DNA from: Vectrevirus LI10P3
Sequence record: OZ035798.1
Direction: 5' to 3' (one strand)
DNA length: 44,918 nt
Under the pieces are notes generated by a model. That model did no database searches. It had not been told where the DNA came from and was given only the letters and a program-made list of their open reading frames with translations. A program made the position numbers and the translations under genes. This document shows positions 6,328-40,600 of this stretch, piece after piece (positions within the stretch are counted from its first letter, which is position 1; every line of letters begins with the position of its first letter).

Positions 6328-6350
6328 GCAGTGCGTAAGCACTGCTTTTC
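6328..6350 (+). terminator. Stem-loop with T-run after tailspike 1
   Basis: GCAGTGC-gtaa-GCACTGC followed by TTTT. Confidence 0.5.
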
Positions 6351-6405
6351 ACGCAACTTTTCTTAAAGGTTATCATGGTGGTAGCCTTTCAGAAGAGGAG
6401 GTTAC

Positions 6406-10240: not shown

Positions 10241-10336
10241 TTGGATGGTAGCTTCTTAGTCTGGATAGGTTAAACCTAGGGGACTCTCTTGAGTCTCCTA
10301 TAATGTAACCTAACTAACTAAATGAGGATTAATAAC

Positions 10337-10690
10337 ATGGCTATGTCTAATATGACTTACTCTCAGGTTTACAACACCGCTCATGCTGCATTAGTTGAAC
10401 GTATCTGGAATGATGATATTGATTGTATCGATAACGCACATGATGCAATCCATGAGGTAGCGGACAGTGCTGTACCAATCTATTATGCTGACATCTTCTC
10501 AGTAATGGCGAGTGAGGGTATTGATCACTTCTTCGAAGACTCCGGCCTGATGCCAGATACTAAGGATGTAACGGTCGTACTACAAGCCCGTATTTATGAA
10601 CAACTCACCATTGATTTATGGGAACGTGTTCAAGATATGATTGTTGCGTACACCACTTACGCTGAGTATTCAGAAGAAGAGGAGGAATAA
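10337..10690 (+). CDS. ocr: Ocr (gp0.3-like) DNA-mimic anti-restriction protein
   Basis: MAMSNMTY...[19 protein letters not shown]...[13 protein letters not shown]...[15 protein letters not shown]...EEEEE closely matches recalled T7 Ocr; 117 aa, highly acidic. Confidence 0.85.
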
Positions 10691-10880: not shown

Positions 10881-11108
10881 ATGGATTTAGATAGCATCAT
10901 TATGGCATTTGCTCTTATTGGCTTAAGCTGGTGCTCCTATCACCTTTACCGTGAGTTCTTATTTGATAAAGCTAAACGCAAACTAAGAAAGGAAGGCGGT
11001 AATTACCTTTGTGTAAGAGATGGGCTTGTAGAATACATTGCACCTAACGGCACGGAATGCGCCATTAGCAAAGATGCATTTATAGAAACGTGGCATTACA
11101 TCAAGTAA
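10881..11108 (+). CDS. Early small membrane protein (75 aa)
   Basis: AGGAG RBS; N-terminal hydrophobic segment IIMAFALIGLSWCSY. Confidence 0.55.
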   Translation: MDLDSIIMAFALIGLSWCSYHLYREFLFDKAKRKLRKEGGNYLCVRDGLVEYIAPNGTECAISKDAFIETWHYIK

Positions 11109-11171
11109 CTAGCCTATAGCCTACCTGAGTGGGCTATGTGATATTTACTTACACTATATAAGGTGACTATT

Positions 11172-15243: not shown

Positions 15244-17232
15244 ATGGCTATTATTCAGAATGTACCGTGTCCTGCCTGTCAAAAGAATGGACATGATATT
15301 ACTGGCAACCATCTTATGATATTTGAGGATGGCGCTGGTTACTGTAACCGTGGTCACTTCCATGATAATGGGAAGCCTTATTACCATAAGCCAGAGGGTG
15401 GCATCGAGATAACCGAGTTACCTATTACTGGCAATATCAAATATACACCTTCTCAATTCAAAGAAATGGAGAAGGAAGGGAAGATAAGCGACCCTAAGCT
15501 ACGCGCCATCGCTCTTGGTGGTATGCGTATGAAAGACCGTTGGGAGGTCATGAATGAGCAAGAAAGGGCAGACCAAGAAGCAGAGTGGAAACTTGATGTT
15601 GAATGGTTCCTCACGCTTAAGCGTAAGAACCTTGTATCCCGTCACATTCGAGGTGACATCGCAGCAATGTACGATGTGCGCGTTGGACACGATGAAGAGG
15701 GAAGAGTCAACCGTCACTATTATCCACGATATGAAAAGGGTGTGCTTGTTGGGGCAAAATGCCGGACGTTGCCGAAGGATTTTAAGTTCGGACACCTAGG
15801 TAAACTCTTTGGTATGCAAGATCTTTTCGGTATGAACACTTTGTCTCACGTGTTAGACAAGGGAAGACGAAAGGATTGCTTGCTTATTGTAGGCGGTGAA
15901 CTTGATGCACTAGCAGCGCAGCAGATGCTCCTTGATTCTGCCAAGGGTACTAAGTGGGAAGGCCAGCCATACCATGTATGGTCTGTCAACAAAGGCGAGT
16001 CTTGTCTTGAAGAGATAGTGCAAAACCGTGAGCATATCGCCCAATTCAAGAAGATTATATGGGGTTTTGATGGAGATGAGGTAGGGCAGAAGCAGAATCA
16101 GCAAGCGGCTCGCCTGTTTCCTGGCAAATCCTATATCCTTGAATACCCCTCTGGTTGCAAAGATGCTAACAAGGCATTGATGGCTGGCAAGGCCAAAGAG
16201 TTTGTTGATGCATGGTTTAATGCCAAGTCATCTGATGAAGTCTTTGGTAGCCAGATTAAATCTATCGCCTCTCAAAGGGATAAGCTCAAGGCTGCACGTC
16301 CAGAGCAAGGACTATCATGGCCTTGGCCTAAGCTGAACAAGGTAACGCTAGGTATTCGTAAGAACCAACTTATCATTGTAGGCGCAGGCTCTGGTGTAGG
16401 TAAGACTGAGTTCCTTCGTGAAGTAGTTAAGCACCTCATTGAAGAACACGGTGAATCTGTAGGCATCATTTCTACAGAAGACCCGATGGTCAAGGTGTCC
16501 CGTGCTTTTATCGGCAAGTGGATTGATAAGCGTATTGAGTTACCGCCAACCAACGACCCTAAAGAAGACGGATACCGTGAGGTGTTCGACTACACCGAGG
16601 AAGAAGCTAACGCCGCCATTGATTATGTAGCTGATACAGGTAAGCTGTTTGTAGCTGACCTAGAGGGTGACTATTCGATGGAAAAGGTAGAGCAAACTTG
16701 CCTAGAGTTTGAGGCTATGGGTATTTCTAATATCATCATTGATAACTTAACGGGGATTAAATTAGATGAGCGTGCTTTTGGTGGGAAGGTTGGTGCACTT
16801 GATGAATGCGTCAAGCGGATTGGTACTATCAAAGACCGACACCCGGTTACTATATTCCTTGTATCACACCTTACACGTCCTCCGGCAAACCGTACCCAAC
16901 ACGAAGAAGGTGGCGAAGTTATCCTTTCTGACTTCCGAGGCTCAGGAGCTATCGGATTCTGGGCATCTTACGCCTTGGGGATTGAGCGTAACACAAGAGC
17001 TGAAACGCTTGATGAAAGAACTACCACGTACATCTCATGTGTCAAAGACCGCGACCAAGGTATCTGGACTGGAACCAAGGTCATGCTTAAGGGTGACATT
17101 CAAACCGGACGTTTAATGGAACCACAAGCCCGTACTAAGTCATTTGATACAGGTGAAGCAAGGCAACAAGAAGTACCAGATTTACCGGACACTATAGAAG
17201 AGACTAACTTCGATGAAGAAAGTGAGTTCTGA
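15244..17232 (+). CDS. DNA primase/helicase (gp4-like)
   Basis: N-terminal zinc-binding CPACQ...CNRGH; Walker A GAGSGVGKT; acidic C-terminus FDEESEF. Confidence 0.9.
   Translation: MAIIQNVPCPACQKNGHDITGNHLMIFEDGAGYCNRGHFHDNGKPYYHKPEGGIEITELPITGNIKYTPSQFKEMEKEGKISDPKLRAIALGGMRMKDRWEVMNEQERADQEAEWKLDVEWFLTLKRKNLVSRHIRGDIAAMYDVRVGHDEEGRVNRHYYPRYEKGVLVGAKCRTLPKDFKFGHLGKLFGMQDLFGMNTLSHVLDKGRRKDCLLIVGGELDALAAQQMLLDSAKGTKWEGQPYHVWSVNKGESCLEEIVQNREHIAQFKKIIWGFDGDEVGQKQNQQAARLFPGKSYILEYPSGCKDANKALMAGKAKEFVDAWFNAKSSDEVFGSQIKSIASQRDKLKAARPEQGLSWPWPKLNKVTLGIRKNQLIIVGAGSGVGKTEFLREVVKHLIEEHGESVGIISTEDPMVKVSRAFIGKWIDKRIELPPTNDPKEDGYREVFDYTEEEANAAIDYVADTGKLFVADLEGDYSMEKVEQTCLEFEAMGISNIIIDNLTGIKLDERAFGGKVGALDECVKRIGTIKDRHPVTIFLVSHLTRPPANRTQHEEGGEVILSDFRGSGAIGFWASYALGIERNTRAETLDERTTTYISCVKDRDQGIWTGTKVMLKGDIQTGRLMEPQARTKSFDTGEARQQEVPDLPDTIEETNFDEESEF
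17180..17202 (+). promoter_or_regulatory. Phage RNAP promoter inside the helicase 3' end
   Basis: ATTTACCGGACACTATAGAAGAG. Confidence 0.6.
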
Positions 17233-17248
17233 TTAGTGTATTTATCAG

Positions 17249-17275
17249 GGCTTGTCTCACATGTGAGACAGGCTC
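17249..17275 (+). repeat. Conserved palindrome, copy 3 (extended hairpin, terminator-like)
   Basis: GGCTTGTCTCACATGTGAGACAGGCTC then CTTATT; nearly identical to the copy at 40549. Confidence 0.65.
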
Positions 17276-17308
17276 TTATTAAGTACATTAAATAACTGGA
17301 GATTGATT

Positions 17309-18221: not shown

Positions 18222-18387
18222 ACATAGTCTTAAAATGTTCGATGGTCATGAAGACCTGCAAGCCAAGATTACTAACCAAGCCTTCCTGTTTGCACAGTTA
18301 ACTATGGCTGAAGCAAAGAAGAATAGCCTGACGCGTGAACAGGTTATCAAGGAAAGTGAAGTGAAACGTAAGATTCGCAGTCGATAA
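18211..18387 (+). CDS. Hypothetical small protein (58 aa)
   Basis: GGTGA RBS; short overlap with the previous gene; below ORF-track cut-off. Confidence 0.3.
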   Translation: MQNKHSLKMFDGHEDLQAKITNQAFLFAQLTMAEAKKNSLTREQVIKESEVKRKIRSR

Positions 18388-18393
18388 GTCAAG

Positions 18394-18417
18394 GGTTGTC
18401 TCACGTGTGAGACAGCC
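18394..18417 (+). repeat. Conserved palindrome, copy 4 (G at centre)
   Basis: GGTTGTCTCACGTGTGAGACAGCC then TTTCAT. Confidence 0.65.
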
Positions 18418-18444
18418 TTTCATCATATTGATTGGAGGTGCATT

Positions 18445-18552
18445 ATGCCACGTGATTATGATTCTGATTGGGATTTCCAAGATTCAATGAATCCAAAACC
18501 AGAACGTTCAGATGATTACTACGAAACAGAGGCAATGTATGAAGACTATTAA
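18445..18552 (+). CDS. Acidic micro-protein (35 aa)
   Basis: Strong GGAGGTG RBS; MPRDYDSDWDFQDSMNPKPERSDDYYETEAMYEDY. Confidence 0.35.
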   Translation: MPRDYDSDWDFQDSMNPKPERSDDYYETEAMYEDY

Positions 18553-18757
18553 ATTAAGCAAGGTTTGCTCTTGCGGTAAAGGTTATCGCAGTCGTATTGA
18601 TGGTAAGTGTGGGCATTGCAGGTCTAAGAAAGAGGCTGCTTTGTTTGATAAGTACCACAATGAATTAGCATATAACTATCCTCATCTAACACCTAATTCT
18701 TTATTAGGACTTGGTTATAGGGTTAAATACTTTGGAGCAATCTATGAAATCAATTGA
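18539..18757 (+). CDS. Small zinc-ribbon-like protein (72 aa)
   Basis: CSCGKGYRSRIDGKCGHC; overlaps the DNA polymerase start. Confidence 0.45.
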   Translation: MKTIKLSKVCSCGKGYRSRIDGKCGHCRSKKEAALFDKYHNELAYNYPHLTPNSLLGLGYRVKYFGAIYEIN

Positions 18758-21290
18758 TTGGAAGAAGGAGGCAGAAGGTCGTATCCTCGTGATGGATGCG
18801 GAAGCTAAAGGACTCCTTGACGCTATCCGATATGGACACCGTGAAGATGTGCATATCATTTGCTGCATGGATTTGCTTACTACCGAGGAGTTTCTCTTCT
18901 TTGACCCGTATGAGATGCGTGACCCTGAAGCAAGAGAACGCCTGAAGGAATGGGAAGGTCATCAAGACGGAACCTTGGTTGATGGTGTTAACTTCCTGAA
19001 GCATTGTGAAGCTATTGTGTCACAGAACTTCCTAGGGTATGACGGACTTCTCTTTGAGAAAGCATTCCCTGATATTTGGAAAGGCTTTAACTATACCGAG
19101 AAGCGCGGTAAGGGCAGACTCCGTGCTGACCTGTGTCCGGTGCGAGTCATGGATACGCTGGTGATGAGTCGCCTGTTAAACCCCGATAGACGCCTTCCTC
19201 CGCAAGCATATGCCAAAGGTATGGGTAACGTCGCCCCTCACTCAATTGAGGCGCACGGCATCCGTATAGGCCGCTATAAACCGGAGAACGAGGACTGGTC
19301 TAAACTAACTGACCACATGGTTCACCGTGTACGTGAGGACGTGGCGATTGGTCGTGACTTGTTCCTCTGGCTCTTTAACGGGGAATGGATGGAGCACAAA
19401 CGCCGTGGCGTGAATAAACGCACTGGCCTAGGTATTGAGACAGCCTTCCACATGGAGTCCATTGTGGCGCTGGAGATGAGCCGTCAGGCAGAGCGTGGAT
19501 TCCGTCTGGATATTGACAAAGCACTAGCGCGATGCGAAGAACTGGACGCTAAGATTGACGAGACAGTCGCAGCGTTCCGCCCTCACATGCCTATGCGTAT
19601 CAAGTCTAAGCCTTTTAAACCGGAAGAAAAGAATGAAGTATGCCAACGCGCAAATGAGTATGGAGCTAGCAACAATATACCTACTGTCCTTGACCCCTCA
19701 CACTTTCTTCATGCCGAGAGACGAGGAGATCGCAAGACAGTATGGAGTGTCACTACTAAGTCTGGTGATTGGTCGGCTAGTGTCAAGAAAGACTTTCCTC
19801 ACCTTAGAGGAAACCGTAATGACACGCCAAGCATCAAGTGGATTGGCGCTTACTCGCCTGTTACTTTCGAAGAGATTCCCTTGGGTAACAGGGATACAGT
19901 TAAGCAAGTGCTCTATGAGTATGGATGGAAAGGTGTTGAATTTAACGATACCGAGCAAGCTCATCTCGATGAGCACGGAGTGTTACCAAAACCTTGGAGT
20001 GGTAAGATAAATGAAAAGTCCCTCACTTTATGGCAAGAAAGAGCCGCACGTGAAGGTAAAACAGTCCCTGATTGGTGCTTGGGTATCGCTGCATGGTACA
20101 TACTCGTATCCCGTCGTGGTCAGATACTCAACCGTGGTGACGTTGAAGCCTTCAACGAGAAGGGAACGTGGCCCTCGCAGGCTGGTGTACGAAAGTGTCG
20201 CGGCCTTGTACCTGTAGCATTCAACAAGGAGCTAGGAATCAATGCGCAGCAATACTACGAGAGGTACGGATGTTGGCCTACGTCTGACAAAGATGACGGA
20301 GAGTGGCGTGTTCCAGCTGTTGCTATTAGTATTGGCACTTCTACGTTCCGTATGCGTCATCGTAATGTGGTTAATATTCCTGCCCGTGGCTTGTATCCTT
20401 TACGTGATTTATTCATAGCAGGGAAAGGCAAGCTAATCCTTGGTTGTGACGGTGCAGGTCTTGAACTGCGTGTCCTGTCTCACTTCATGAATGACCCTGA
20501 GTACCAAGAGATTGTACTGCACGGTGATATTCATACGCATAACCAGATGAAGGCTGGTCTTCCTAAGCGTGATATGGCGAAGACGTTTATATACGCCTTC
20601 CTCTATGGTTCTGGTATAGCCAACCTTGCAGCAGTCTGCGGTGTTACTGAGGAAGAAATGAAGGAAGTTGTGGCAAGATTCGAGATTGAACTACCGTCTC
20701 TTGCACGTCTTCGTGAGAATGTTATCGCACAAGGTAACAAGTTTGGCTACCTGCAAGCACCTGATGGGCATTGGGGTCGCATCCGCATGTCTGGTGGTGA
20801 ACTTAAAGAGCACACGATGCTTAACGTATTACTCCAGATGACTGGCTCTTTGTGTATGAAATATGCACTAGTCAAGGCATTTGCAGTAATGCGCAAGGAA
20901 GGTGTAGCTTTGGATGCTATGGGAAATCCTTGTGGTGTGGCTAACGTGCATGATGAAATCCAGATGGAAGTTCCTGAAGAGGAGGTCTTGTATCTTAACT
21001 ACGACCTACCTTTCACCTTAGATGGGTTCGAAACAGAGAAGGCTGCTGTGAAAGCAGTTTTCGATGCAGAGGAGAAACGTGTTCATGTGGATTCTGAAGG
21101 ACGTATGTGGTCTGCTGCAAACCTCGTTAGCGTTGATGCTGATGCTGGTGTATTGCATTGCCAGCGCCGTTATCACCGTGCAGGTCATATCATTGCCGAC
21201 GCCATGACTTGGGCAGGGCAGTATCTGAAGATGCGTTGCCCGATGGCAGGAGAATATAAGATTGGCGCAAGCTGGAAGGAAACACACTGA
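18744..21290 (+). CDS. DNA polymerase, family A (gp5-like)
   Basis: ATG 18744 with GGAG RBS; motif B RDMAKTFIYAFLYGSG; motif C VANVHDEIQMEV; N-terminal exonuclease-like LVMDAEAKG. Confidence 0.9.
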   Translation: MKSIDWKKEAEGRILVMDAEAKGLLDAIRYGHREDVHIICCMDLLTTEEFLFFDPYEMRDPEARERLKEWEGHQDGTLVDGVNFLKHCEAIVSQNFLGYDGLLFEKAFPDIWKGFNYTEKRGKGRLRADLCPVRVMDTLVMSRLLNPDRRLPPQAYAKGMGNVAPHSIEAHGIRIGRYKPENEDWSKLTDHMVHRVREDVAIGRDLFLWLFNGEWMEHKRRGVNKRTGLGIETAFHMESIVALEMSRQAERGFRLDIDKALARCEELDAKIDETVAAFRPHMPMRIKSKPFKPEEKNEVCQRANEYGASNNIPTVLDPSHFLHAERRGDRKTVWSVTTKSGDWSASVKKDFPHLRGNRNDTPSIKWIGAYSPVTFEEIPLGNRDTVKQVLYEYGWKGVEFNDTEQAHLDEHGVLPKPWSGKINEKSLTLWQERAAREGKTVPDWCLGIAAWYILVSRRGQILNRGDVEAFNEKGTWPSQAGVRKCRGLVPVAFNKELGINAQQYYERYGCWPTSDKDDGEWRVPAVAISIGTSTFRMRHRNVVNIPARGLYPLRDLFIAGKGKLILGCDGAGLELRVLSHFMNDPEYQEIVLHGDIHTHNQMKAGLPKRDMAKTFIYAFLYGSGIANLAAVCGVTEEEMKEVVARFEIELPSLARLRENVIAQGNKFGYLQAPDGHWGRIRMSGGELKEHTMLNVLLQMTGSLCMKYALVKAFAVMRKEGVALDAMGNPCGVANVHDEIQMEVPEEEVLYLNYDLPFTLDGFETEKAAVKAVFDAEEKRVHVDSEGRMWSAANLVSVDADAGVLHCQRRYHRAGHIIADAMTWAGQYLKMRCPMAGEYKIGASWKETH

Positions 21291-21406
21291 TGGATAGGCT
21301 TGACATTATTTGCCTATTCTTCACTCTCTTTCTTACACTCCTTATGCTTGCTTGTTATGGGAGTATGAGACTAGATGTACCTGATGAAGAAGAGGGTTAC
21401 GACTAA
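21290..21406 (+). CDS. Hydrophobic micro-protein (38 aa)
   Basis: ATG overlaps the polymerase stop (TGATG); MDRLDIICLFFTLFLTLLMLACYG...PDEEEGYD. Confidence 0.4.
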   Translation: MDRLDIICLFFTLFLTLLMLACYGSMRLDVPDEEEGYD

Positions 21407-21504
21407 TGCAAACTGCTTTTATTATTCTTGGTATCATATTATTTATGGTAGTACTCTGGGCCTTCTCTGGCATTGACCCGGATTGTGATGGTAACTACGA
21501 CTGA
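21406..21504 (+). CDS. Hydrophobic micro-protein (32 aa), similar to the previous one
   Basis: TAATG coupling; MQTAFIILGIILFMVVLWAFSGIDPDCDGNYD. Confidence 0.4.
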   Translation: MQTAFIILGIILFMVVLWAFSGIDPDCDGNYD

Positions 21505-21511
21505 GTTATAC

Positions 21512-21545
21512 TCAAGGTCACTTACGAGTGGCCTTTATGGATAAC
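21512..21545 (+). promoter_or_regulatory. T7-type RNase III processing site-like hairpin
   Basis: ACTCAAGGTCACTTACGAGTGGCCTTTATGG resembles the recalled T7 R-site pattern CTCAAGGTC...GAGTGGCCTTTATGAT. Confidence 0.45.
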
Positions 21546-21572
21546 TTATCCCTACTTATTTTGTCTAACATG

Positions 21573-21595
21573 ATTTACTGGACACTATAGAAGGA
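21573..21595 (+). promoter_or_regulatory. Phage RNAP promoter
   Basis: ATTTACTGGACACTATAGAAGGA, perfect consensus. Confidence 0.85.
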
Positions 21596-21659
21596 AAGCC
21601 TAGACAATCTAGGTTTATAAGGTAGTATAGGTAATTAAGTAAATATAGGAGATATAAAT

Positions 21660-22037
21660 ATGTCTATGGTAACTACTCTGGTATTCGTGGCTCAATACTT
21701 TCGTGGTCTGGCTAATAAGTTCAAGTCCAAGGCTATCAAAGCTATTGAGGCTCGCATCGAAGCAGTACAGGCAGAGCAAGTTAAAGTTGAAGAACATCGT
21801 AGTTCTCAAATGATTGACTGCCATAACCGCTACTATGCATCTCGTGATGACCTTAATGCACGCCAAGTCAAAGAGGTTGAAGATATGATGGCACGTCACC
21901 AGCAAGAGCGTGACAGCATGAAAGCTGAATTTGAAGAGAACAAGGCATCCATTGCTCTGGTACACCAATCTGCATCTGACAGTCTGAAGAAAGAGATTGT
22001 TATGCTTGAAATCGAACTGGACAACCTGACCAAATAA
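21660..22037 (+). CDS. Hypothetical coiled-coil protein (125 aa)
   Basis: AGGAG RBS; hydrophobic N-terminus then charged heptad-like sequence. Confidence 0.6.
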   Translation: MSMVTTLVFVAQYFRGLANKFKSKAIKAIEARIEAVQAEQVKVEEHRSSQMIDCHNRYYASRDDLNARQVKEVEDMMARHQQERDSMKAEFEENKASIALVHQSASDSLKKEIVMLEIELDNLTK

Positions 22038-22503: not shown

Positions 22504-23310
22504 ATGGCACGTGGTGATTTTGATTTTGGTGCTTCCGTATCTAAAGCTGAAGGTAAAGTCTTTAAGAACCCAGAAGTAGGTGATCATGAAGCAGTAATCT
22601 CTGGCATCATTCATGTTGGTTCCTTCCAAGACATCTTTAAGAAAGGTAATACCACTGAAGTTAAGAAGCCAGCAAACTTTGTTCTAGTTAAGATTGTCCT
22701 GATGGGCGACGATGACAAGAACGAAGATGATTCTCGCATGGAACAATGGATGGCTGTTCCTCTGAAGTCTGGTGATAAGGCAACACTGACTAAGTTCCTA
22801 AATGCAGTTGACCCTAAAGAGCTGCTTGGTGGTTTCGATGACTTCATCGGTGAATGCCTGACTGCAACTATGGTTGGCTCTGGCGACAAGAATGATGATG
22901 GTACTTTCAAGTATGTTAACTGGAAAGGCTTTGGCGGTATGCCTGATAAGTTGAAGAAGCTTGTACTGGCTCAGGTAGAAGAGGAAGGTCTGTCTATGAC
23001 AGGTCATATCACCTTCGACAAGCTGACCAAAGAAATCCTTGATGACATCCCAGCTAACTTGGTGCGTCAATACTTCCTTAATGAAACACCTCGTGGTAAG
23101 AACCTGTCTGTTGCTGGTTCTCACGTAGAAGCAATCATTAAAGCTGCTCGTGAAGAAGACCCAGAGTGGAAGAAAGCCAAGAAGAAAGATGACGAGGATG
23201 CTACTCCAGCTAATCGTAAATCTCTGGATACTGGTGAGTCTGTTCCACAGGAAGTACCTGAAGCAGAAGATACTCCTGCACCGGAGATGGATGAGGACGC
23301 GGAATATTAA
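22504..23310 (+). CDS. Single-stranded DNA-binding protein (gp2.5-like)
   Basis: 268 aa; acidic C-terminal tail ending in aromatic residue (...EMDEDAEY), as in T7 gp2.5; AGGAGA RBS. Confidence 0.65.
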   Translation: MARGDFDFGASVSKAEGKVFKNPEVGDHEAVISGIIHVGSFQDIFKKGNTTEVKKPANFVLVKIVLMGDDDKNEDDSRMEQWMAVPLKSGDKATLTKFLNAVDPKELLGGFDDFIGECLTATMVGSGDKNDDGTFKYVNWKGFGGMPDKLKKLVLAQVEEEGLSMTGHITFDKLTKEILDDIPANLVRQYFLNETPRGKNLSVAGSHVEAIIKAAREEDPEWKKAKKKDDEDATPANRKSLDTGESVPQEVPEAEDTPAPEMDEDAEY

Positions 23311-23538: not shown

Positions 23539-23539
23539 A

Positions 23540-23570: not shown

Positions 23571-23593
23571 ATTTACTGGACACTATAGAAGAG
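23571..23593 (+). promoter_or_regulatory. Phage RNAP promoter
   Basis: ATTTACTGGACACTATAGAAGAG, perfect consensus. Confidence 0.85.
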
Positions 23594-23642: not shown

Positions 23643-24023
23643 ATGTTCAAGATTGAAACTATCGTAAACCGTGTTGTTAAAGGTGCTGCTCTGGTATCCG
23701 TTGAGTCTTTCATTATCGTCGATGAAGCTGATCAACTGGTAGCTGGTACTAAGGCTTACGATACCCGTGAAGAAGCTCAGGCTAAGATTGACAGCATGGG
23801 TAACTTCGCTGCTGGTCTGGAGTTCGCTCGCGCTTGCTTCCCTGAGCAGGCTGACAAAGCTCAGATTGGTAAGGCTAATATCGTAGCTGAATATCTGGAT
23901 TGGATTGCTGCTGGTAAGCCGGTGAAAGAAGTTAAGTCTGCTGAAGAAGCTGAATCTCAGGCAGTAGAAGAAGAAGTAGCTGCACCGGTAGATGCTCCGG
24001 TAAGCGAAGAGGAAGAGTTTTAA
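23643..24023 (+). CDS. Hypothetical protein (126 aa) with acidic C-terminal tail ending in Phe
   Basis: AAGGAGAA RBS; ends ...PVSEEEEF; codon usage looks like a highly expressed gene. Confidence 0.65.
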   Translation: MFKIETIVNRVVKGAALVSVESFIIVDEADQLVAGTKAYDTREEAQAKIDSMGNFAAGLEFARACFPEQADKAQIGKANIVAEYLDWIAAGKPVKEVKSAEEAESQAVEEEVAAPVDAPVSEEEEF

Positions 24024-37588: not shown

Positions 37589-40536
37589 TGGCAATTGAGC
37601 GACAAGCAGTACAAGGTCTGCCACAAGTGCAGGCCACTTCTCCTAATGTCATGACCTTTGCACCTCAGCGAGTTGGAGGTGTGGAGGCTGGCGTAGCTTC
37701 TACCTCCGGTAGTCGATTTATCGAAGACCTTATTCGAGCAGCCAGTAGTGTAGCTGATGTAACCACTGGTATCCTTAATCAAAAGATTGAGGAAGATAAG
37801 GTTGTTCAAATGGAACGGGCATATAACGGATTAATGCCTTCTGAGGATGCAACTCGTGGTGGCGCTCGTGCTAACATGCTTGTCAAAGCTCAACTGCTAG
37901 CTAATGATGAAGCAGCACGAATGAAAGACATGGCTACTCGTTTCCAAGGAACGGATGACGAGTGGACACAACTTATGGTTGACTCTCGTAATGAGATGCA
38001 GAATAAGCTGTTCCAGCAATACCCTGAGTTGCAAGGTGACAAAGATACTATGCGTATGGTCACTAATGTCTTCCAAGAACAGCAGCCTCAGATTTGGGCT
38101 ACACGAACCCAGCATAAACTTGACCGTGAACAAGCAGACCGTGAGGATACCTTTGACGGTCGAGTGGCTTCTACTTGGGATTCTAATATTGACCCTGAAG
38201 CCTCTGGCTATGCTTTACAGGAACGAATCCGCGAAGGTCTTACTCAAGGATTACTACCTGAACAGATGCACAAGAAGTTAGTCCAGCGAGCAATTTCACT
38301 TGCACAAGGCGGTGATGTTAGCATGGCTGAAGCCCTGAAGTATGTGAAGGACGATAAGGGTGTTTCTGTTTATGCTAAGAATCCACAGCTTATCACAGCC
38401 ATCACTAGTGGTAATGCAGTTTGGGCTAGGAATAATGTAGCTGATGTAACTCGTATGTCTTTCGAAGTTAAAGAATCCTACCTTGCAGGTGATTTAACTG
38501 ATGAAGAATTGTTGGAACGAGCACAGCACATTAATAATCTGACAGGTAACTCTGTCTTCTCTAATCCAGAGCTAGAGGCACTGATGCGCCAACGGGCTAA
38601 GCAGAATGCAGAGCTAGGTGCAATGCAGGATATGCGACGTGAGCTTTACTCCGACCGCCTGACTGGCTTCCAAGGTAAGACTGATAAAGAGAAGAAGGCT
38701 TACATTGATGTTATCAAACAGGATAGCCAACTTTATGCAGACCAGCAAATCAAACAACGTGGCTTGGACCCTTACAGTCAAGAGGCTGAAGCTATTCGTG
38801 GTGCAGTGGAAGTGCAGCGCCTGCAATTCATGAACTCCAAAGGCTTAGTGGATGATACCTTTGAGTCTCGTATCAAAGCCATGGAATCTATGCTATCGCC
38901 TGAGCACTTTGCCAAGGGCGAACCACAGGAGTTGATGACTATTCGCCAGTTGTGGGAACAGTTGCCAGAAGAGAGCCGAGGTGTCTTTGGTGACACGGTG
39001 AATGGCTACATGGATAACTACAACACTGCACTACAAATGGGAGAGACACCTTTGCAGGCTGCAAGGTTTGCGCGTGAAGCACAGCAGAAATTCTCTCGTA
39101 CTGAGAAGGAAACCAAGAAGTTCAACTCAGCTATTGGAGATGCACTGGATGAGGTATCTGGTGCTGGCTGGTTTGATGGTAAAACCGAAGTGTCAGACTT
39201 AGGTAAAGCTATTGCGGAAGAAGAGTTACGAGCTAAGGCCAATATGTTGTGGTCTAGTGGTATGCGTAACATGGATTCTATCAAGAAGGCTTTAATTACT
39301 TGGGGCAATAAACGCTACACTCAAACAGAGGATGCAAAGACTTCCGGTGGCTATTTCATTAAAGGTGATTACACTTCTGCATCTGATATGCTTATGTCAG
39401 TTGGGAAAGGCGTAAACCCTACCGATGTACCTCTGGCGCTTGGTAGGTATGTAGAAACACAGATGCCAGAATTGAAGAAGGAGCTTCAAGAGTGGGAAAC
39501 TAAAGATGATATATACATTGATTACAATGAACAGAAAGGAACTTTTGTGATTCGTGCTGGTGCAGCAGGTCGCCCTCTTTCTGGAGTAATCCCTGTAACC
39601 TCTTTAGATACTACTTCACTACTAGATTCTGCCTATCAGAAGAAAGTAGAGGAACGAGATAAAGGCGAGTATGTCCACCCGTATCGTACAGATATTGGTG
39701 CACAAGAGCCTATGCCAGCTAAACCAACTGCCAAAGATATTGGTAAATTTGGACTAGCTAACTTCCTCATGTCTTCTGCTTTTGCTTCTGGTGAGAATCT
39801 GCCTTCTAACTTCGAGATTAACTATCGAGGTAATATGCAACAATTCTATGACAAGCTAGCTATGGATGAGAATAAAGATAAAGTTGGCTTTAATAAGGCA
39901 ACTGGAACCTTTACTCCATATAAAGACGCTCGCGGTGAGTCTATCGGTTACGGTCATTTCTTAACGGAAGAAGAGAAGCGAAACGGGTATATTAAGATTG
40001 GTGATGAACTAGTTCCCTATCGAGGGTCTATGTCTCAGCTTACAGAGAGCAAGGCTCGCGCTCTTATGGAGCAAGATGCTAAGAAGCATGTGCCTCCTAC
40101 TCGTGACTGGAAGATTCCGTTTGACCAGATGCATCCTGCACAGCAACGTGGCTTGATGGATTTAACCTACAATTTAGGTAAAGGTGGAATCCAGAACTCA
40201 CCGCGTGCTTTTGCTGCATTCAAAGCTGGTAAGCTTACGGAAGGCTTTATCGAAATGCTGGGCACTGCATCAAGTGAAGGTAAGCGTATTCCTGGCCTAC
40301 TGAAGCGACGCGCTGAGGCATACAATATGGCATCTGCTGGTGGTGTGCCTAAGATTACCGAAGTGGAGACTCGTGAAGATGGCTCCATGTGGGTTAGGTT
40401 TGGTGGACCTATGCCAGCAGGTTCTGTCTCGGCATGGACTCATAAACGTATTGGCGCGGATGGTTGGTATCAGGTTTATGAGGCTGCACCTACCAAGTTA
40501 GCTAAAGGTTCTAAGGTAGGTAAATTTAAGTTGTAG
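37588..40536 (+). CDS. Internal virion (ejection) protein with C-terminal lysozyme-like domain
   Basis: 982 aa; region ~aa 780-930 (YKDARGESIGYGHFLTEEEK...GLMDLTYNLGKGG...KRRAEAYNM) resembles a T4-lysozyme-type (GH24) fold. Confidence 0.75.
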   Translation: MAIERQAVQGLPQVQATSPNVMTFAPQRVGGVEAGVASTSGSRFIEDLIRAASSVADVTTGILNQKIEEDKVVQMERAYNGLMPSEDATRGGARANMLVKAQLLANDEAARMKDMATRFQGTDDEWTQLMVDSRNEMQNKLFQQYPELQGDKDTMRMVTNVFQEQQPQIWATRTQHKLDREQADREDTFDGRVASTWDSNIDPEASGYALQERIREGLTQGLLPEQMHKKLVQRAISLAQGGDVSMAEALKYVKDDKGVSVYAKNPQLITAITSGNAVWARNNVADVTRMSFEVKESYLAGDLTDEELLERAQHINNLTGNSVFSNPELEALMRQRAKQNAELGAMQDMRRELYSDRLTGFQGKTDKEKKAYIDVIKQDSQLYADQQIKQRGLDPYSQEAEAIRGAVEVQRLQFMNSKGLVDDTFESRIKAMESMLSPEHFAKGEPQELMTIRQLWEQLPEESRGVFGDTVNGYMDNYNTALQMGETPLQAARFAREAQQKFSRTEKETKKFNSAIGDALDEVSGAGWFDGKTEVSDLGKAIAEEELRAKANMLWSSGMRNMDSIKKALITWGNKRYTQTEDAKTSGGYFIKGDYTSASDMLMSVGKGVNPTDVPLALGRYVETQMPELKKELQEWETKDDIYIDYNEQKGTFVIRAGAAGRPLSGVIPVTSLDTTSLLDSAYQKKVEERDKGEYVHPYRTDIGAQEPMPAKPTAKDIGKFGLANFLMSSAFASGENLPSNFEINYRGNMQQFYDKLAMDENKDKVGFNKATGTFTPYKDARGESIGYGHFLTEEEKRNGYIKIGDELVPYRGSMSQLTESKARALMEQDAKKHVPPTRDWKIPFDQMHPAQQRGLMDLTYNLGKGGIQNSPRAFAAFKAGKLTEGFIEMLGTASSEGKRIPGLLKRRAEAYNMASAGGVPKITEVETREDGSMWVRFGGPMPAGSVSAWTHKRIGADGWYQVYEAAPTKLAKGSKVGKFKL

Positions 40537-40548
40537 TATCTAACTCAA

Positions 40549-40575
40549 GGCTTGTCTCACATGTGAGACAGGTCT
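40549..40575 (+). repeat. Conserved palindrome, copy 6 (extended hairpin, terminator-like)
   Basis: GGCTTGTCTCACATGTGAGACAGGTCT then TTATG. Confidence 0.65.
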
Positions 40576-40600
40576 TTATGATAGGCACTATGGAGGAATT

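Follow-up and report, generated by a model that had tools for sequence, protein, structure and literature searches.

A predicted T7-type RNase III processing hairpin and two conserved hydrophobic peptide genes behind the DNA polymerase gene of an SP6-like Vectrevirus

The ribonuclease III (RNase III) signals R1.1, R0.5, R4.7 and R18.5 of bacteriophage T7 were characterised by Dunn and Studier (1983) and by the Nicholson laboratory. These sites lie on the transcribed strand and combine the boxes ACUCAAGGUC...GUGGCCUUUAUGR with an asymmetric internal loop of 4 nucleotides (nt) opposite 5 nt, an upper stem closed by a tetraloop and a lower stem of about 8-10 base pairs. In phage T7M, sites R0.5, R4.7 and R18.5 begin at, or extend over, the stop codon of the gene before them, and in T7 the hairpin of R4.7 is followed closely by the phage promoter phi4.7. 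Internal loops restrict RNase III to one phosphodiester, and the resulting 3' hairpin shields the RNA from 3'-5' exonucleases (PMC1540722, PMC3867540). Here we describe a locus that resembles these sites in all of the above features of sequence, structure and position. It lies behind the DNA polymerase gene in a 44,918-nt stretch of DNA from Vectrevirus LI10P3 (OZ035798.1; the whole stretch is called the window, and positions are those of the window), where two very small genes, 13.5 and 14, are followed by a hairpin at 21499..21550 on the + strand that is predicted to be a T7-type RNase III processing site from its fold, a T7 covariance model, BLASTN and its conservation. The 1.1 kb spanning these elements is 100% identical to OZ035735.1 (Vectrevirus LI10P3) and has an identity of 93-94% to phage K1E and of about 93% to K1-5. 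By these identities the window is a Vectrevirus, a K1E/K1-5/SP6-like podophage of the subfamily Molineuxvirinae; T7, in contrast, belongs to the Studiervirinae. We consider it likely that the locus is the 3' end of the polymerase transcription unit, encoding two membrane peptides and ending in a hairpin that is cut by RNase III.

The hairpin begins at the stop codon of gene 14, is otherwise intergenic, with 22 nt between its end and a phage promoter at 21573. Its lower stem pairs 21499-21509 with 21541-21550 through 10 base pairs and holds the gene 14 stop codon UGA (21502-21504). Above it, ACUC (21510-21513) faces UAUGG (21536-21540) in a 4-nt/5-nt internal loop, and the upper stem pairs 21514-21522 with 21527-21535 through 9 base pairs beneath the tetraloop UACG (21523-21526). 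The full element has a folding energy of -19 kcal/mol (z = -4.2), and none of 200 shuffled sequences folds as well. The topology of the centroid fold is the same as that of T7 R1.1 and R4.7 folded identically. Both conserved boxes are present exactly, namely ACTCAAGG at 21510-21517 (5' box ACUCAAGG) and CCTTTATGG at 21532-21540 (3' box CCUUUAUGR, with the scissile bond inside), and they align with those of T7 R0.5, R1.1 and R18.5. The seven upper-stem pairs beside the internal loop are those of R1.1, and the next two match R0.5 and R18.5. The sequence and the structure together support placing the hairpin among the T7-type RNase III signals, with the layout of R1.1. It differs from R1.1, which has 10 upper-stem pairs and a GCAA loop, in its 9 pairs and its UACG loop, and cleavage is a prediction here. 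It also differs from the T7 sites in its position, since it follows the DNA polymerase module and T7 has no site after gene 5.

A covariance model built from seven T7 RNase III sites only, none of them from the window, ranks the hairpin first among all hits on both strands of the window (46.7 bits, E about 2e-8), and the opposite strand of the element scores 10.8 bits. This bears out the initial annotation of this DNA, in which a string found at 21510-21540 had been quoted as resembling T7 RNase III sites. As a control, the model was applied to phage T7M, whose GenBank record annotates RNase III stem-loops: all 8 of the hits at E <= 1 are annotated sites, with scores of 33.9-61.7 bits, and the score of the window hairpin lies within this range. 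Likewise, BLASTN of the hairpin finds, beyond the SP6 group, phages of the T7 group, including a T7M feature named 'RNase III recognition site R18.5'. Rfam assigns no family anywhere in the window at its gathering thresholds, and no RNase III site is annotated in the GenBank records of K1E, K1-5 and SP6. The open full-text literature yielded nothing on RNase III sites of SP6-like phages or on the products of genes 13.5 and 14 (gp13.5 and gp14), with a mention in the original genome papers still possible. The hairpin is a new member of a well-known class of RNA sites, and the finding as a whole is real but ordinary for this group of phages.

A stable hairpin that closely follows a gene cluster and is itself closely followed by a new promoter might instead terminate transcription by the phage or the host RNA polymerase and not be a processing site. 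The stem is followed by UAUGGAUAAC, which contains no U-run, and a terminator scan found no + strand site at the hairpin; an intrinsic terminator was rejected on these two grounds. The bipartite stem, the 4/5-nt internal loop and the ACUCAAGG...CCUUUAUG boxes are moreover features of T7 RNase III sites, and T7M annotates its terminator Tphi as a feature class separate from the RNase III stem-loops. Because the U-run is missing, we rejected the terminator reading and consider it very unlikely.

The element is almost invariant. At 29 loci it starts at the TGA of whichever open reading frame (ORF) is last, and across the 47-nt element at 14 loci the mean pairwise difference is 0.034, compared with 0.33 at the third codon positions of the polymerase gene at essentially the same loci, which is about a ten-fold difference. 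The columns that vary are one base of the internal loop, the apical loop (in one phage only) and, in loci L027 and L029, three positions of the stem. In both of these loci, C-G has become A-U and A-U has become U-G at two adjacent pairs of the upper stem, so that the changes are compensatory. In the alignment, 93.9% of the cells are paired, compared with 33-56% when the partners are slid. Single changes in the lower stem occur once in L020 and once in L025, and L020 looks error-prone.

Conservation of this kind could also have arisen if the element were kept for a reason that acts at the level of DNA, as a recombination linker, a homing target or part of an origin, and if its likeness to an RNase III site were incidental. 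The element does form a sharp mosaic boundary: its own TGA serves as the stop codon of the ORF before it, be it polymerase, 13.5 or 14, and insertions of an 86-aa (amino acid) or a 194-aa ORF begin right after ...ATAACTTA. In addition, T7 R1.1 lies between promoters phi1.1A and phi1.1B, in the primary-origin region of T7. The compensatory changes in L027 and L029, on the other hand, keep RNA pairing with inclusion of a G-U pair, which would be meaningless in duplex DNA, and the covariance model is specific for the + strand. GC skew is uniformly positive with no inflection at the hairpin, and a replication origin at this position was rejected for that reason. We thus regard a purely DNA-level explanation as improbable; a role as a recombination linker is compatible with conservation of an RNA signal and is probably a consequence of it.

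Given the match to the T7 sites, a cut position can be proposed for the RNase III signal. The T7 sites were extracted with site and cleavage coordinates that we assume to be those of Dunn and Studier (1983). With these assumed coordinates, the cuts in five T7 sites fall at one point of the motif, ...ACUCAAGGUC...GUGGCCUUUAU/GA... (the slash marking the cut), after UUUAU or UUCAU. Alignment with T7 R0.3, R0.5, R1.1, R4.7 and R18.5 predicts a single cut in the window hairpin at CCUUUAU/GG, between positions 21538 and 21539 on the + strand and on the 3' side of the internal loop. RNase III would then cleave after U21538, which is 35 nt before the promoter.

The DNA polymerase gene, a homologue of K1E gene 13, spans 18744..21290 on the + strand according to the ORF list and the K1E/K1-5 annotation. 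The mechanically called ORF starts from a TTG at 18711, and the ATG at 18744 gives a product of 848 aa, the length annotated in K1E. The stop codon TGA occupies 21288-21290 and, as had been noticed initially, shares its A with the ATG of a 38-aa ORF (TGATG; MDRLDIICLFFTLFLTLLMLACYGSMRLDVPDEEEGYD, 21290..21406, + strand), which is itself chained by TAATG to a 32-aa ORF whose ATG overlaps its stop codon (MQTAFIILGIILFMVVLWAFSGIDPDCDGNYD, 21406..21504, + strand). The former is the homologue of gene 13.5 and the latter of gene 14, which are annotated at exactly homologous positions in K1E (AM084415) and K1-5 (AY370674); gene 15 of SP6 is of the 32-aa, gene 14 type. The 38-aa peptide matches phrog_15860 (E 2.7e-27, residues 1-38 of a 38-position profile) and is 82% identical to gp13.5 of K1E and K1-5 (CAJ29420.1, AAR90054.1), with the same position and the same overlap with the polymerase stop codon, so that it does not differ materially from them and is the same gene. 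The 32-aa peptide matches phrog_4539 (E 2e-16) and is 88% identical to gp14 of K1E and K1-5 and to gp15 of SP6 (CAJ29421.1, AAR90055.1, AAP48754.1), with an invariant tail, DPD-x-DGNYD. Members of the gp14 family are always encoded by the last ORF before the hairpin or, in phage UAB_Phi78, which has no hairpin, before the promoter.

Neither gene is new, both being annotated already in the GenBank records of K1-5, SP6 and K1E. Both PHROGs families carry no function, and both peptides are present in public protein databases as 'hypothetical protein'. By tblastn, the 38-aa peptide occurs in 67 phage records, whose names are all those of Escherichia, Vectrevirus, Citrobacter, Klebsiella or Raoultella phages; for the 32-aa peptide the number is 68, Salmonella Zindervirus included. 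All of these records belong to the same lineage. A single-sequence search of 1.84 billion representative proteins with gp14 returned its own cluster alone, and scans of IMG/VR with both peptide alignments gained no new diversity. Neither peptide has a significant match in Pfam, NCBIfam or PADLOC, and hence none there to a curated family of holins, type I toxins or known small defence and anti-defence proteins. Gene 13.5 is unannotated in several deposited genomes, for example R4596 and the vB_EcoP_B/C/D/K/R series; in R4596 it lies at 691-807, with a GTG start and a TAGTG junction. In the metagenomic contig L020, the copy of gene 14 has several frame-breaking differences that resemble sequencing errors.

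To evaluate coding, we used pairwise Nei-Gojobori counts of the proportions of nonsynonymous (pN) and synonymous (pS) differences among 12 distinct nucleotide versions of gene 13.5 and 7 of gene 14 from GenBank and IMG/VR loci. For gene 13.5 the annotated frame gives a pS of 0.37 and a pN of 0.08, and hence a pN/pS of 0.21, compared with ratios of 0.89 and 0.91 in the other two frames. For gene 14 the values are 0.32, 0.07 and 0.21, compared with 0.79 and 1.03. The acidic tails and the residues closing each helix are invariant across the variants of both peptides. An ATG or GTG is retained at the junction in 14 of 14 loci for gene 13.5 and in 16 of 16 for gene 14, and the junction is an overlapping TGATG, TAATG or TAGTG in every examined locus except that of phage NTNC80A; there, the 38-aa ORF and the homing-endonuclease gene before it share 14 nt. 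A stop codon that has changed to TAG is accompanied by a GTG start codon (TAGTG). Because of the frame-specific pN/pS, the invariant tails and the preserved start/stop overlaps, there is strong evidence, at the level of sequence comparison, that both micro-ORFs are real translated genes under purifying selection. The preserved overlaps fit coupling by termination and reinitiation, which we infer from this arrangement.

These same data bear on whether the micro-ORFs specify separate peptides at all, since they might be conserved as RNA or DNA, or the first might be a -1 frameshift extension of the polymerase. It does lie in the -1 frame relative to the polymerase gene and starts inside the polymerase stop codon, and frameshifting is used by T7-like phages, with T7 genes 10B, 0.6B and 5.5-5.7 annotated as joined coding sequences. 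The selection signature, however, is specific to the annotated frames, and the start codon at each junction has been kept. No slippery heptamer of the form X-XXY-YYZ precedes the polymerase stop codon (AGC TGG AAG GAA ACA CAC TGA). Furthermore, the 38-aa ORF of NTNC80A follows a homing-endonuclease gene rather than the polymerase gene, and SP6 has the 32-aa ORF in the first position. A frameshift fusion to the polymerase was rejected on the missing slippery site and on the occurrence of the cassettes after other genes, and it is extremely unlikely that the micro-ORFs do not encode peptides of their own.

The best 19-residue Kyte-Doolittle means of the two peptides are 2.5 (38 aa) and 2.7 (32 aa), and their net charges are -6 and -4, respectively. 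Single-sequence AlphaFold2 models place a helix at residues 3-28 of the 38-aa peptide and at residues 2-20 of the 32-aa peptide, each followed by a tail of low confidence. The prediction for each peptide is a single hydrophobic helix that carries a flexible acidic tail, and both would insert into a membrane. The initial annotation had likewise described single hydrophobic helices with acidic tails, and this description stands. The tail motif it gave, D-x-D-x-(E/G)-x-Y-D, fits neither peptide: the tails end in ...DVPDEEEGYD (38 aa) and ...IDPDCDGNYD (32 aa), and the pattern common to both is P-D-x-[DE]-[EG]-x-Y-D (PDEEEGYD and PDCDGNYD).

The two peptides had also been called twins. When their profiles are compared by hhalign, only the last 8 residues align (E 0.038, probability 1.3%), and of 5000 shuffles constrained to the helix-plus-tail architecture, 205 (4%) score at least as high in global alignment as the real pair. 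Because this support is weak and not decisive, we have not adopted the label, and a common origin of the two peptides is possible on their sequences but not shown. At the DNA level, both ORFs share the terminal string TACGA(C/T)T(G/A)A and each begins with TG right after a stop codon; therefore, either ORF can follow the polymerase gene or the other ORF with the overlap intact. In Erwinia phage Era103, an unannotated 32-aa ORF at 1632-1730 (MKWLTLSVPCFLYTVTLLAVLCAVRGIEPSYD) lies downstream of the polymerase gene in a frame other than that of the annotated gp18, encodes a hydrophobic helix with a ...GIEPSYD tail and resembles gp14 (...SGIDPDCDGNYD) by inspection.

Acidic C-terminal tails are known from T7 gp2.5 and gp4, where they dock on the T7 DNA polymerase. 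Like these proteins (...EADEDGDF and ...WSNDTDF, respectively), gp13.5 and gp14 have a short, strongly acidic C-terminal tail in which the last or the penultimate residue is aromatic, and the two peptides would be made together with the polymerase. Unlike them, the two peptides end in Y-D, with no terminal aromatic residue, and their tails hang on a membrane helix, so that the likeness is one of resemblance only. By this analogy, gp13.5 and gp14 might be membrane-anchored mimics of the polymerase-docking tails which, through their coupled synthesis, tether or titrate, at the inner membrane, a fraction of the polymerase or some other partner that binds such tails; we offer this as a speculative proposal with only a small chance of being correct. 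In a variant of the same idea, the tail of gp14 may bind a divalent cation. A DxDxDG calcium-binding loop of EF-hand-like type, reportedly described by Rigden and Galperin in 2004, is said to follow D-x-[DN]-x-[DN]-G with a further acidic ligand at about position 12. In the gp14 tail, D24-P-D26-C-D28-G29-N-Y-D32, the three D residues and the G of the DxDxDG motif are invariant in 6 variants, and the peptide stops at position 9 of the loop. The tail of gp13.5 (PDEEEGYD) does not fit this loop, and Pfam gave no match.

Several other proteins of the window end in strongly acidic tails, and in most of these the last residue is aromatic; similar tails are found on T7 gp4 and gp2.5. They are the primase/helicase (15244-17232, ...NFDEESEF), a 268-aa phrog_862 protein (22504-23310, ...EMDEDAEY), a 126-aa phrog_4429 protein (23643-24023, ...VSEEEEF), an ocr-like 122-aa protein (10322-10690, ...EYSEEEEE) and the product of a 35-aa ORF matching phrog_15473 (E 2.5e-24; 18445-18552, + strand; ...EAMYEDY). 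This last ORF is a further conserved micro-ORF and lies between a hairpin at 18373-18439 and the polymerase start.

Comparison with related phages shows that both peptides are optional. Genes 13.5 and 14 both follow the polymerase gene in the window, K1E, K1-5, 6949, LL11, AAPEc6 and ACG-C91. Unlike the window, SP6, UAB_Phi78 and mutPK1A2 have gene 14 alone, directly after the polymerase gene and with no 13.5 between; R4596, LF31P3, NTNC80A and CrRp3 have gene 13.5 alone; and NIC06P3, BP12B, PST_H2, PDP21P6 and several metagenomic contigs have neither. We read genes 13.5 and 14 from this distribution as accessory genes that are exchanged as cassettes and are dispensable for polymerase function: because close relatives carry both, one or neither, the polymerase does not need the peptides. 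The hairpin is also an insertion hot spot (window 21504-21572, with homologous positions in loci L003, L008, L009, L011, L014 and L007). The 86-aa ORF lies between the hairpin and the promoter in LF31P3, PDP21P6 and PST_H2, with a copy truncated to 48 aa in SP6; the 194-aa ORF has the same placement in phage 6949; and in NTNC80A the homing endonuclease sits between the polymerase gene and gene 13.5.

Taken together, we propose the following course of events at the 3' end of the polymerase transcription unit. Transcripts starting at the phage promoter at 17180..17201 (+ strand; ATTTACCGGACACTATAGAAGA, a consensus match), which is the nearest upstream promoter whose transcripts would cross the polymerase gene and both micro-ORFs, or at promoters further upstream, would carry polymerase, 13.5 and 14. 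Ribosomes ending polymerase synthesis at the UGA would restart at the overlapping AUG of 13.5 (UGAUG) and again at that of 14 (UAAUG), and would thereby produce two peptides of ~4 kDa, each with one membrane-spanning helix and a short flexible acidic C-terminal tail. The gene 14 stop codon sits in the lower stem of the R1.1-type hairpin, whose two-turn helix would be bound by host RNase III. Because of the 4/5-nt internal loop, the enzyme would cut one strand only, after U21538. After the cut, the polymerase-13.5-14 mRNA would keep the upper stem at its 3' end as a hairpin that guards it against 3' exonucleases and so stabilises it. The cut would also detach this message from read-through into gene 15, for which a separate promoter lies 35 nt downstream. 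The peptides themselves most likely act at the inner membrane during the DNA-metabolism phase.

Several observations weigh against this proposal. The covariation in the hairpin comes from two related contigs, most of its copies being identical. With 9 pairs, the upper stem is one pair shorter than that of R1.1 (10), and in the minimal substrate uR1.1, which has 11 pairs and no lower stem, removal of one pair lowers reactivity 50-fold (PMC1540722). The window hairpin, however, has a full lower stem, and T7 R0.3 likewise shows 9 standard pairs in the alignment. The Shine-Dalgarno-like elements, as read from the sequence, are weak and lie 9-10 nt 5' of the start codons. The optional presence of the peptides indicates no need for them on the part of the polymerase and does not point to a specific role. 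UAB_Phi78 retains gene 14 and has no hairpin; therefore, the gene and the hairpin are separable. Finally, the open literature gave no expression, localisation or cleavage data.

The same T7 model finds further candidates in the window, all on the + strand and all in, or straddling, gaps between ORFs. One of these is a hairpin at 18373..18439 (23.1 bits, E about 0.01; z = -5.8), which is intergenic, lies 5' of the polymerase gene and has the same layout of lower stem, 4-5 nt internal loop, upper stem and tetraloop. It may form the 5' boundary of a processed polymerase-13.5-14 mRNA; because this weaker hit lies directly upstream of the polymerase gene, the processed mRNA may be bounded on both sides. 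Others are at 40529-40595 (29.7 bits), 17229-17295 (21.2) and 10261-10317 (19.4), with weaker hits at 11098-11155 (16.2 bits) and 6347-6405 (15.8). The four best of the additional hits share the lower stem, internal loop, upper stem and tetraloop layout, with z between -3.7 and -8.7, and the hit at 40529 has canonical ACUCAAGG...CUUUAUGA boxes. As a set, these predicted sites suggest a genome-wide RNase III processing map for the phage.

An 18-nt palindrome, (A/T)GTCTCAC(A/G)TGTGAGAC(A/T), occurs in 8 copies in the window with at most 2 mismatches (9319, 14858, 15042, 15842, 17253, 18397, 23539 and 40553), compared with a chance expectation of none. In three RNase III-like hairpins, a copy makes up the upper stem. 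The copy at 23539 stops 15 nt short of a promoter at 23571, and positions 21562-21572, immediately 5' of the promoter at 21573, hold a half-site, TGTCTAACATG. This promoter (21573..21594, + strand) matches the SP6/K1E-type consensus ATTTACTGGACACTATAGAAGG exactly, has its expected +1 at G21590 and drives gene 15. The consensus has 7 matches in the window, all on the + strand, where 0 are expected by chance. A short hairpin, CCTAGACAATCTAGG (21599..21613, + strand), follows in the 5' leader of the gene 15 transcript, as context outside the locus described here, and similar hairpins come after other promoters of the window. The gene 15 homologue (21660..22037, + strand, 125 aa) is the first gene 3' of the predicted processing site and the promoter. 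A propagated label calls it 'polysaccharide chain length determinant protein' (phrog_7450); its sequence has a hydrophobic N-terminus followed by a charged region rich in Glu, Lys and Gln, and this label looks poorly supported. Compared with the K1E/K1-5 reference coordinates, the assembly is circularly permuted, with the polymerase gene at 18.7-21.3 kb here and at 11.1-13.6 kb in K1E.

For the annotation of this group, the analysis indicates that genes 13.5 and 14 are real and yet have been left out of several deposited Vectrevirus genomes, and natural variants with and without the peptides make the role of the peptides easy to test. The hairpin is one of the few stretches matched by BLASTN between SP6-like and T7-like phages, as would be expected for a signal read by a host enzyme, and it also marks the boundary at which small cassettes and larger inserts are swapped. 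A model of T7 sites transfers cleanly to the Molineuxvirinae and indicates at least 4 further candidates in the window, which provides an initial map of possible transcript processing in SP6-like phages.

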